Of a stretch of DNA of 64,000 nucleotides, positions 3,001 through 6,000 are shown in pieces. Within the stretch, counting starts at the first letter, position 1. Each line of letters opens with the position of its first letter. The stretch lies in the sequence record NC_028656.1. One strand, written 5' to 3'. The stretch comes from Enterobacteria phage VT2phi_272. Made by a program: the position numbers.

Positions 3001-6000
3001 AAAACCACGATAGAGGGTAGTTGATAGATAGTGTTGATTCTGGAAGCTGAAGTTGTTCTGGGATTTTTTGACTGAAATAGCAGTCTTCCAGTTTTTCGAA
3101 CACTTCCCACGCCCGATCGGTTTCGAGCATTTTTGCGTGACGGGCTGCGCCGCGTTCTGTCCAGAGGATGAGGGAGCGAACGTTACGGGCGATTTTCACA
3201 GAGTAGTTAAAAGCTACTCTGTGCTTGAACTCACGTAAAGTTTCACCTTCAAGTTTGAAGAAGTGTTTTTCCTCAATGAAACGACCTTTGTTTTCGTGGT
3301 GATTCTGGCGAATACGAATAGCTTCTGTGCCGTAAAGGTGCGCCAAAAGTTCGGTAGTGATAACGGGGATCTGCTTGTAAGTAATCGTGGAGAGTGTTTC
3401 AACAGAAACTTGAGTTGTCATTATGACGCCCTCGAGTGGTTTCTAAACTATCACCACCGTTAGGTTCGAATCATCGGGTGGTGAGACGTACAGGGTTCGA
3501 ACTACCGGGAAACCAACCGGCGAGCTTTTCAGCTCCCCTATACGCCCCACCATAATTCAGATGTGCGCGTGCATACGACAATAAAAAACACGCTCGCGGC
3601 GTGTCTCTGTCGCGGTTTCTATCCGGGGTTCGAATCCCGACGGTCAACTCGACCGTGCGAAGAATATAATCCCGGATATGTGTTGTCGTCAACAAGTGGC
3701 GTGCTATCATCGAATAGTGTTCTATCCTACTCAGTGAGGTTTAACATGCGTACAACCCAACAATTCAGCATTACATTAACCAACGAAATGGCTGACATGG
3801 TGCGCGCCCGTGTGGCTTCCGGTGCATACGCTTCAGAAAGCGAAGTTATTCGTGAAGGGCTTCGTGCACTGAATGAACGCGACAAAGCAATGGAAGCGTG
3901 GTTAATACACTCAGCCGCGCCGCCACTCGACGCTATTCGTGAGAACCTAGGCAAAGGGCACTCCATTTCACAGGTTCGCTCTGAGATTCGCGCCCGGAAC
4001 TAATCTGCATGGCATATGAAGTGCCACACTAACAAACTGCTCCAGGTATGGGAATAGTGTCACTTGCAGCACCTATTAGAGATCCGATAATGAACATCAT
4101 AGCAAGGTTCTTTTATTTGATAATTTTCTGCATGGCAACATCAGGATGCACTACCACTACGAAAATAAATCGCGGAGATGAAAAGGAACAGTACATCATT
4201 GCCTGTGGTGCCGCTACACCATGGGGAGTATGCTATGATAAAGCCAATGCCCTATGTAAAAATGGATATAAAGACATTTTAAAGGAACAGGGATTTAACA
4301 GGAAAGAATTAACCATTGAGTGTAAATAAGGCCATCATTTGCAACGTTGAAAAAATTCGCCCGTGCTACAGGGAAAAACTCCAGATCCGCTTCGTTTAAC
4401 TACGAGGATTACCACTAATGGCGATGTTTACCCCCCCTCATCCTGGAGAAATTATTGCTGATATTCTGGAAGATCAGAATATTGGAATCAGGGAACTGGC
4501 AAGAGCGCTTGATGTCGCGCCTTCCACTGTTCAGCGACTGGTTTCAGGTAATGCGACAATATCTCCTGAAATGGCTGTTCGTCTCGCTGCTGTCCTGGGG
4601 GGAACTCCGTCTTCATGGATTCGTCTCCAGACGGCATGGAGCCTTGAAAAAGCGGAAAGAGAAGTTGACGTATCTCATCTCTCAACAAAATACCGCCCGG
4701 CAGAAATTTCGCCTCATGCTTAACCACCGCGCCGTCATTCTGGCGGCGTCGGAGAGTGGAGGATATCAGGTTCCGAATTCTGCGTTGTTCTCCGCGTCCA
4801 GGATTTCTTCAATCTTCCGTACTCCCCGATTATTGTATCGGAAGCTTTCTACCTGCTTATCCGAATACGGGGATTTGTCGATGAACCATTTCCCGTATTG
4901 TTCGGTTTTGAGCATGTAGGTATTGGCAATGCGACCAACCTTGTTAGCGGATATTTTGAGTTTTGCTCCAACTTCTGACGCCGAATAGTAATGTTCATTA
5001 ATCATCGGTAGCGGGATTACGTTAGCGCCTACAACGGGATTAACCAGGCTGGCGGCAACGACTTGTTTAGCTTCAGGGGCAAGGTTGGGGAGGAAGCCGA
5101 AAAGGTCTTTCATTGTATCGACGGTCATTTTCAGCGCCCGTGCTTTACGGAATTCCTCAAGGCCGTTAGTCGAATGTTTCGAGGTGATTTTTTGTTGCAG
5201 TTGCTGTTGCATTGACTCCAGTTGATCGACCAGCGAACGACGGACGGATTTAGATTCACGAGCGGCAACCCGAAGCGCTTGTTTATAGGTCATCACAATA
5301 ACAACCTGATCCGCACCGCCTTTTTTCTTATCCATGGGGGTTACGAAAATTTCGTAACCCCCCCCCATCAAGTTCATCTTTGATGCGTGCAATGAAGTCG
5401 TTGTTGCGTACTTCTTTTTCACCGCACAGTCTCCGCGCTTCATTCACCATTTTCAACAGAGCCTGGCTGTCGATAGTTCCATTTTTCATTACATTATTTT
5501 TCATCGTTTTAACCTCTCAAGCTCGCCGTAGCGAGTTCAGATAAAAGAAATCCCCGCGAGTGCGAGGATTCTTATTCACCTTTGACCAAGTTGCAGGTTA
5601 GCCACGGTTAACCTCCTGCGGCGGTTCTGGTAGCGGCATCCAGTGAGTTGCTTGCTCAATACCATTACCCGGCTTAATCGTTGCATCTCCGCGCCGAAAG
5701 GTGCTTCCGGTATAGCGTGCGGAGCATATTAGCGGTTCAACCAGAGAGCTATCGAAATTCACCGAAATAAGCACGTTCTGGCCCTTTTCAGGCATTCGAT
5801 CACTACAGCTTATCCAACTATCCGGAGTTACCGGAGAGTTACCAGCCTCATAAGCGGATTTCATCCAGTGCGTAAGCGTTTCGATGCTTACACATCCGCA
5901 ATCAACGTCTATTTTTTCTTTTTGTTCTGACAACCATTCCTGGAATGACAGCTTGGCAGTCTGGCTTGCTGGATCAATTCGTGGCAGGCCGATATATAGT

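Follow-up and report, generated by a model that had tools for sequence, protein, structure and literature searches.

isrK-C4 RNA modules ahead of two predicted antirepressor genes in a Stx2a phage, probable relatives of the P1 immI and Gifsy-1 RNA switches

What lies ahead of the two predicted antirepressor genes of Enterobacteria phage VT2phi_272, and how might it govern their expression? The window analyzed here is a 64,000-nucleotide (nt) stretch of that phage (record NC_028656.1), identified as a PA2-type Shiga toxin 2a (Stx2a) prophage of E. coli O157:H7, and both genes lie on its minus strand. Antirepressor 1 (225 amino acids [aa]; 2744..3421) carries an ORF6N N-terminal domain (Pfam PF10543, E=1e-19) and antirepressor 2 (215 aa; 14727..15374) a Rha N-terminal domain (Pfam PF09669, E=2e-32; TIGR02681), and alignment showed the C-terminal ~95 residues of the two proteins to be nearly identical. 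Stx-phage Ant proteins have a C-terminal domain in common with P22 Ant (Fogg et al. 2011, PMC3064807), and both genes are called ant below. An earlier note had described their 5′ flanks as a conserved array of terminator, promoter and leader, about 75% similar by eye. We conclude that each gene is preceded, on its own strand, by a homologous module of ~290 nt (copy 1 and copy 2, respectively), and that the module is very probably an RNA switch of the P1 immI and Gifsy-1 type, a known kind of element represented here by two mutually orthogonal members.

Two isrK-C4 modules on the antirepressor strand

Both module regions were scanned against all Rfam families, in which a sequence belongs to a family when its covariance-model score reaches the curated gathering score. 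The scan returned isrK and then C4 antisense RNA in both copies, in the same order, at equivalent positions and on the gene strand. The isrK model (RF01394; gathering score, 50) scored 53.0 bits at 3583..3656 in copy 1 and 58.7 bits at 15541..15616 in copy 2, marginal but full-length matches, and the C4 model (RF01695; gathering score, 45) matched over its full length with 70.1 bits at 3474..3557 and 77.1 bits at 15429..15516, such that all four matches pass. A covariance model of our own (R1) scored the same C4 segments at 96.7 and 96 bits. Nucleotide similarity fell short of the earlier estimate: from the −35 hexamer to the ATG, copies 1 and 2 were identical in 54% of all pairwise alignment columns and in 58% of ungapped columns, the value was 57% in a three-way alignment, and blastn of the two flanks found 67% identity over 175 nt with a barely significant E value of 0.03. 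Identity dropped upstream of the −35 hexamer, where 28 of 55 ungapped columns agreed versus 154 of 264 inside the module. We accept that the flanks are homologous, as the earlier note had proposed, because the covariance models match both; the blastn similarity alone would be insufficient.

Each module reads, in order, sigma-70-like promoter, IsrK small RNA with its own terminator, C4, a leader of ~50 nt, and ant. A promoter scan placed the copy 1 promoter, P-isrK, at 3663..3692 on the minus strand (−35 TTGACG at 3692..3687, 18-nt spacer, −10 TATATT at 3668..3663; predicted start, ~3656) and the copy 2 promoter at 15623..15651 on the same strand (−35 TTGACT, 17-nt spacer, −10 TATATT; predicted start, ~15616). 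Each has 10 of 12 consensus positions, a consensus match only, and the promoter position is aligned and conserved across copy 1, copy 2 and Gifsy-1. Moreover, the predicted starts, ~7 nt past the −10 element, coincide with position 1 of the Rfam isrK model in both copies. In copy 1, IsrK (the a1b1 small RNA) comprises hairpin 1, hairpin 2, a recognition site named a1, and the terminator.

Predicted intrinsic terminators were found on the gene strand where the earlier note had placed them. In copy 2, a terminator scan detected AGACGCGCCAGCGUCU followed by U7 at 15561..15539 (hairpin, 15561..15546); the copy 1 terminator, ACACGCCGCGAGCGUGU followed by U6AUU at 3604..3580, escaped the simple scan but was read by eye and folded as a hairpin (3604..3588). 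The proposed order of terminator, promoter and leader did not hold, however, as the promoters lie upstream of the terminators. The promoter scan found no promoter-like site between terminator and ant, except for a copy 1 site whose −10 element is the ATG itself and which is not conserved in copy 2. Because the promoter is upstream of it, the terminator would be the small RNA's own, attenuator-like terminator and not an insulator. We conclude that the family membership and the anatomy of both modules are established.

A 361-bp segment and 1.2 to 1.4 kb around each module matched phage vB_EcoP_phi346, many Stx2a phage records and chromosomes such as that of strain 3-5-1 with 100% identity. The RefSeq genome records examined leave the module without annotation, with no noncoding RNA feature at either copy, as do most of the phage records retrieved. 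In vB_EcoP_phi346, a coding sequence for a 79-aa "hypothetical protein" (3471..3710, minus strand) takes in the −35 hexamer as well as both IsrK and C4, and is almost certainly spurious. Correct naming of the module would mend the annotation, including that coding sequence.

Recognition elements of the C4 RNA and their target sites

The C4 fold consists of a 17-bp closing stem and two 5-bp hairpins, of which hairpin 1 is GAAA capped in copy 1. The earlier note had seen a structured leader with 7- to 8-bp stems; the structure is there, but its stems are those of the C4 fold. Related modules were collected through the shared Ant C-terminal domain together with a C4-scaffold DNA pattern, which fetched 178 viral loci from which 110 distinct modules were extracted, and 111 C4 copies (68 distinct) were aligned to a covariance model built from three sequences. 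Among the 68 distinct relatives, 99.2% of scaffold cells were paired and double changes occurred in 16 of 27 pairs, values that 0 of 500 shuffles reached, in an alignment that was itself fitted to the model and so favors the result. Slid controls gave 30 to 52% paired.

The C4 RNA exposes two short elements, the loop of hairpin 2 (a′) and a single-stranded linker (b′), named after the APSE-3 record in a usage that may differ from that of P1 workers. The linker accounts for a motif that the earlier note had likened to a tRNA T-arm. Three copies of GGTTCGAA are indeed present on the plus strand of copy 1, at 3463, 3494 and 3627, and three within 170 nt are far beyond chance, as only two others occur in the whole window, one of them in the T-arm of a tRNA-Arg at 25455. 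The likeness to tRNA did not stand, since no tRNA was detected in the module and the motif is not kept in copy 2. Rather, one of the three is a recognition element of C4, and the other two, in IsrK and in the leader, are its targets. On the RNA strand, copy 1 has AUUCGAAC in the loop of IsrK hairpin 2 (site b1, 3635..3628), AGUUCGAA in the C4 linker (b′, 3503..3496) and AUUCGAAC again directly after C4 (site b2, 3471..3464), and the linker can pair with either site, the core UUCGAA being self-complementary. The copy 2 counterparts are AUUCUCACC (b1, 15592..15584), UGUGAGAA (b′, 15458..15451) and UUCUCACC (b2, 15424..15417): the linker has changed, and both partners have changed to match. The three motif places thus carry GGTGAGAA, GGTTCTCA and GGTGAGAA in copy 2, all shifted together to GUGAGAA/UUCUCAC.

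The loop has partners in the same two RNAs. In copy 1, the a′ loop UUGGUUUC (3516..3509) is complementary to AGAAACCG, which is single stranded in IsrK just 3′ of hairpin 2 (site a1, 3620..3613), and to the leader site a2, AGAAACCAC (3444..3436), which stops 2 nt short of the ant Shine-Dalgarno sequence GAGGG (3433..3429). In copy 2, the a′ loop UUCCCUUGAUUG (15475..15464) includes CCUUGAUUG, complementary to CAAUCGAGG in IsrK (a1, 15576..15568) and to CAAUCAAGG (a2, 15394..15386), which overlaps the Shine-Dalgarno sequence AAGGAGG (15389..15383). Sites b2 and a2 both lie in the leader, at 3422..3473 in copy 1 and 15375..15428 in copy 2. Both window copies also keep the two-hairpin layout of the c4-a1b1 motif, in which the second loop holds one site and the other follows directly on its 3′ side. 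Each C4 therefore carries two keys, UUGGUUUC and GUUCGAA in copy 1 and CCUUGAUUG and GUGAGAA in copy 2, with the complements of both in its own IsrK and leader.

The duplex energies set the two copies apart. The copy 1 elements formed duplexes of −7.9 and −8.1 kcal/mol with their own leader versus −4.8 and −4.6 kcal/mol with the copy 2 leader, and the cognate copy 2 leader duplexes were −8.4 and −12.6 kcal/mol. Relative to cognate pairing, three of the four elements lost 3 to 5 kcal/mol in cross-copy duplexes; the exception was a′ of copy 2, only ~2 to 4.5 kcal/mol weaker on the copy 1 sites. These values come from duplexes restricted to loop and linker, which replaced RNAduplex runs on whole RNAs that ignored internal structure and returned long, unrealistic duplexes. 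Moreover, two-site b..a patterns were found at the expected places only and nowhere else in the 64 kb. We conclude that copies 1 and 2 should not cross-react, because their a′ and b′ sequences differ.

Among the 110 modules, 39 loop variants and 25 linker variants were found, and each element was compared with its cognate flanks and with noncognate flanks, that is, those of modules with a different element. For a′, duplexes with the upstream site were −12.2 kcal/mol cognate and −7.5 kcal/mol noncognate, with 94 of 110 modules in the best 5%, and duplexes with the leader site were −14.0 and −7.3 kcal/mol (104 of 110). For b′, the corresponding values were −8.9 and −6.8 kcal/mol upstream (69 of 110) and −8.9 and −6.3 kcal/mol in the leader (94 of 110). 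The sites hold fixed positions relative to C4: b1 at about −74, a1 at about −58, b2 at 0, and a2 between +30 and +43, across AAGGAGG, with the ATG near +50. Loop and linker reassort, as the copy 2 loop occurs with GUGAGAA, GUCCUAA or GUAGCAA. Module pairs on the same locus shared both keys in 0 of 21 cases, which is not significant given that random pairing would produce ~0.5. Shared ancestry alone does not make separate segments of a module complementary to each other. We conclude that a′ and b′ co-vary with their four target sites across the 110 modules, so that the lambdoid and Stx-phage versions, too, have a P1-type operator on the ribosome-binding site.

The genes that follow the module encode ORF6N, Rha, Bro-N, KilA-N, P22_AR_N, "Derepression" and Icd-like products, the last (NF033153) making up 40 of 100 distinct downstream products. 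Because several gene families follow it, the module is a mobile regulatory cassette. The earlier idea of a portable, insulated, immI-like cassette is thus sound as to portability and likeness to immI, and fails as to insulation, the terminator being the small RNA's own. Tandem isrK-C4 modules were seen in one related locus, L180 (5665..8522), with C4 at 6792, 7152 and 7814, and two or three tandem modules also occur in L069 and L132. In L180, a Rha gene stub of ~24 codons is all that lies between the first two modules, and a mechanical 666-aa open reading frame (ORF; 5665..7665) runs stop free through two whole modules. Such arrays look like recombination between modules. Cross-talk between prophages of the same specificity was also considered and found unsupported: the specificity-determining 85 to 96 nt occur once per genome in nearly all carrier E. 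coli (median, 1; maximum, 2 and 3).

Candidate mechanism and competing explanations

One way in which such modules could act is known from Gifsy-1, whose isrK-orf45-anrP region has the same architecture. An Rfam scan of Gifsy-1 (NC_010392) returned isrK at 34316..34240 (79.3 bits), an overlapping c4-a1b1 match (48.1 bits versus a gathering score of 46.7) and C4 at 34214..34131 (69 bits), followed by an antirepressor-like gene. Because the orf45/STnc1160 segment scores as C4, we take it to be a C4 RNA; the names isrK, c4-a1b1 and orf45/STnc1160 thus refer to parts of one P1-type module at 34131..34329, although Rfam keeps isrK outside the C4 clan. Gifsy-1 and the window share the promoter, the order isrK, C4, leader and ORF6N antirepressor, the AUG of an upstream ORF and the positions of six recognition blocks, and the terminator hairpin is identical to that of copy 1. 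Outside the six recognition blocks, copy 1 has 80% identity to Gifsy-1, and within the blocks the value is 47%. Antirepressor 1 is 62% identical to Gifsy-1 AnrP over the N-terminal 135 aa (BLASTP), whereas the C-terminal domains differ; the Gifsy-1 neighbor antQ is not in the window, and the host phage here is a Stx2a podovirus of E. coli O157 with two module copies. Compensatory mutations published for Gifsy-1, G28A/C162U and G31A/C159U (Hershko-Shalev et al. 2016, PMC4825925), bear on the pairing itself: G28-C162 and G31-C159 map onto b1 (AUUGGCGU, IsrK hairpin-2 loop) and b′ (UACGCCAA, C4 linker). We conclude that the two architectures are identical and that the published pairs are the linker pairing inferred here.

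In P1, C4 is excised from a precursor by RNase P and is a stable RNA of ~80 nt that represses ant. The window modules resemble P1/P7 immI in that the antisense RNA comes from the target's own transcript, two elements each have one upstream and one downstream site, the downstream pair covers the ribosome-binding site, and specificity differs between heteroimmune relatives. They differ in that C4 directly precedes ant without icd, and in that the a1b1 part ends in its own terminator as a separate, Hfq-type small RNA (IsrK) with no c4-a1b1 score; the P1 order c4-icd is reproduced in ~40% of the related modules, which have an Icd-like gene downstream. The immunity system of satellite phage P4 (CI RNA, seqA, seqC) seems comparable in that a processed leader RNA pairs with one upstream and one downstream site. 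P4 CI acts by premature transcription termination of the replication genes. The downstream site of the window modules is on the Shine-Dalgarno sequence, which indicates translational control, unlike in P4. The authors of the Gifsy-1 study called IsrK a structural homologue of P4 seqA (PMC4825925).

We propose that one gene-strand promoter would serve each module, with most transcripts ending at the intrinsic terminator to give an IsrK of ~75 nt and read-through transcripts extending into C4, the leader and ant. The a′ and b′ elements of C4 would then pair with a2 and b2, and as a2 lies over (copy 2) or abuts (copy 1) the Shine-Dalgarno sequence, ant would go untranslated. IsrK would be a decoy, or anti-antisense RNA, whose b1 and a1 sites pair with the same C4 elements, so that its accumulation would titrate C4 and free the leader. 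A short ORF starting at an AUG in the foot of C4 would run through the leader and help ribosomes reach the ant start, and Ant would then inactivate the prophage repressor. Several steps are carried over by analogy. For Gifsy-1, it was reported that P-isrK drives anrP transcription, which is abolished by P-isrK deletion, that the read-through mRNA is translationally silent and is activated more than 100-fold by IsrK in trans, and that orf45 translation is required for anrP expression (PMC4825925); read-through, trans-activation, the b1:b′ pairs and the upstream ORF requirement are presumed here on that precedent. Hfq binding is presumed for IsrK as a member of its Rfam family. Repression through a2/b2 and competition by a1/b1 are presumed from P1/P7, where c4 is a proven trans repressor according to the summary of Citron & Schuster 1990 given in Weinberg 2010 (PMC2864571). 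Excision of C4 and its repressor role in this phage, and a triggering of Stx-phage induction by Ant, would follow by inference from these relatives.

The upstream ORF has a counterpart in each copy. That of copy 1 (3443..3553, minus strand; 36 codons plus stop) corresponds to Gifsy-1 orf45. It begins at the conserved AUG in the 5′ foot of C4 and closes with a UAG within site a2, 24 nt upstream of the ant AUG. That of copy 2 has 37 codons plus stop (15399..15512, minus strand), starts at the same conserved AUG and ends in a UAA 27 nt before the ant AUG. Gifsy-1 orf45 also starts there but ends in an ATGA overlap with anrP, whereas the window ORFs stop 24 to 27 nt short of ant. The frame was open beyond C4 in 83 of 91 distinct modules versus 39 and 27 for the other two frames, which suggests selection for translation through C4 and the leader, a lead whose counts are inflated by relatedness. 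In 77 of 99 modules, the conserved AUG was in phase with the ATG of the downstream gene, mostly without an intervening stop, and translation from it would yield an N-terminally extended product in those modules.

The leader may also sequester its own ribosome-binding site. In copy 2 and in many related leaders, the ACCUCC that directly follows b2 is complementary to GGAGGC in the Shine-Dalgarno region, and their pairing would enclose a small, variable hairpin (15404..15383, minus strand). RNAalifold on 34 leaders of equal length gave no convincing consensus helix, and for that reason the pairing is put forward as a prediction from the copy 2 fold.

Several observations weigh against the switch as proposed. 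Every functional assignment in this phage rests on homology, and antirepressor function is itself a prediction for both proteins. The isrK scores are just over the gathering score, and with a cutoff as lax as E≤1, the c4-a1b1 model (RF03163) had no match in either module region. The recognition duplexes span just 7 to 9 bp (−8 to −13 kcal/mol), with a′ of copy 1 the weakest (about −8 kcal/mol). RNAcofold of C4 with IsrK or the leader gave 0 to 4 terminal pairs, in a representation that does not admit loop-loop contacts, and speaks neither for nor against the pairing. The 110 modules share descent, such that their counts overstate independence, though 39 a′ and 25 b′ variants reassort. The authors of the Gifsy-1 study invoked alternative cis structures and IsrK in trans with no repressor role for the C4 part, and IsrK remained toxic when the orf45/STnc1160 part was overexpressed (PMC4825925).

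The alternative that fares best takes that study literally: the C4-scoring region would be the structured 5′ part of an orf45-like mRNA with two cis folds, switched by IsrK in trans, and no C4 repressor would act on the ant ribosome-binding site. In its favor are the mutational and native-gel data of PMC4825925, the failure of a constitutive orf45/STnc1160 part to counteract IsrK in the same work, and the preferential openness of the frame from the conserved AUG. It predicts no a2 or b2, however, and the leader sites co-vary as strongly as the IsrK sites, a2 is on the Shine-Dalgarno sequence, and the C4 fold is kept by compensatory changes. Moreover, a stable processed species, STnc1160, is found downstream of IsrK in Salmonella (PMC4825925), and c4 of P1/P7 is, in the summary cited above, a trans repressor. 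We consider this alternative improbable in its strict form; it and the P1 immI-type switch use the same base pairs and are mutually compatible.

Far less likely is the arrangement that the earlier note had suggested, namely, an insulating terminator, a separate promoter before ant and an opposite-strand RNA like that of P22 immI (ant, sar, Arc, Mnt). P22 has in common with the window modules that a small RNA controls the antirepressor posttranscriptionally, but sar is an opposite-strand RNA across the ant ribosome-binding site, and nothing of that kind is conserved in the window. The terminators are real, a ribbon-helix-helix gene (3746..4003) diverges from copy 1, and from that copy only, in a way that loosely recalls Arc and Mnt, and a promoter-like site lies on the plus strand at 15348..15377. 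That site has no copy 1 counterpart, however; good promoters lie upstream of IsrK and none is conserved between terminator and ant, Rfam found no family on the plus strand of either module region, and a repeat search of both promoter regions detected neither inverted nor direct repeats and hence no operator-like inverted repeat. Transcription of Gifsy-1 anrP, moreover, depends on P-isrK (PMC4825925). The antisense suggestion fails as to strand, the RNA being of the P1 c4 type and encoded on the same strand as its target. Least credible of all is that the GGTTCGAA motifs are tRNA or tRNA-type attachment remnants, or that the region codes for the 79-aa protein of vB_EcoP_phi346 (3471..3710): GGGGTTCGAATCCCG at 3625..3639 is T-arm-like and a coding sequence is annotated over the region in PV189404, but ARAGORN and the Rfam tRNA model find nothing in the module, the stem is kept in copy 2 and Gifsy-1 while the loop sequence is not, copy 2 has TGAGAA/TTCTCA in place of the TTCGAA cores, and the 79-aa ORF starts upstream of the −35 hexamer, has no copy 2 counterpart and matches no PHROG in its own record.

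The P1 immI-type switch could be taken one step further, as a two-key combinatorial RNA lock in which at least 39 loop and 25 linker keys reassort independently, two orthogonal locks gate two antirepressors that share a presumed repressor-binding C-terminal domain, and the C4 scaffold may also be translated as an upstream ORF. We regard this extension as possible but doubtful. If it were true, the toxin phage would have two independent RNA-controlled routes of induction, and the same ~90 nt would function at once as a structured antisense RNA and as a coding leader. More generally, the switch may influence spontaneous induction of the Stx2a phage and hence toxin output.

Both RNAs are curated families, and a close homologue of copy 1 has already been dissected experimentally; the mechanism is not of a new kind. 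What the comparison links is three literatures, on P1 c4/a1b1/a2b2, on Rfam isrK and on Gifsy-1 orf45/STnc1160. Within reach of our search, no paper analyzed isrK-C4 elements in Stx phages: work on EDL933 only lists "isrK (2x), C4" among excluded Rfam hits, a paper on Stx small RNAs mentions IsrK solely as an analogy, and a study of Phi24B ant makes no mention of an RNA. In APSE phages, annotators had remarked on the isrK/C4 pair and on a match ahead of the neighboring gene.

Neighboring features of the window

A third gene labeled "anti-repressor" in phage records (4766..5443, minus strand) has no Pfam match, and the Rfam scan and our own C4 model found no isrK/C4 module at it. A terminator-like hairpin at ~5530..5570, judged by eye, is the sole element seen upstream of it.

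The ribbon-helix-helix gene that diverges from the copy 1 promoter (3746..4003, plus strand) is of the ParD family, and its own promoter-like site (3683..3710) overlaps the −35 element of P-isrK. No partner toxin family was recognized beside it and no operator repeat was found; the gene could co-regulate the IsrK of copy 1. Farther along the plus strand, 4048..4723 holds a 93-aa ORF without a family match followed by a HigA-family antitoxin gene (4418..4723), possibly a HigB/HigA-type pair. Ahead of copy 2, a BsuBI/PstI-type restriction endonuclease gene and an overlapping upstream 489-aa ORF (17185..18654) occupy 16235..18654 on the minus strand, ~0.6 kb upstream of the copy 2 promoter and on the same strand.

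ARAGORN and Rfam place the only tRNAs of the window, tRNA-Met, tRNA-Arg and tRNA-Arg, at 25228..25479, followed by STnc100 (26885..27090, plus strand) and the anti-small RNA AsxR (27144..27092, minus strand). These tRNAs, STnc100 and AsxR are the usual surroundings of stx2 in Stx2 phages. An ALIL pseudoknot, the frameshift signal of the IS3 family, scored 121 bits at 31807..31923 on the minus strand and points to an insertion sequence inside the prophage.

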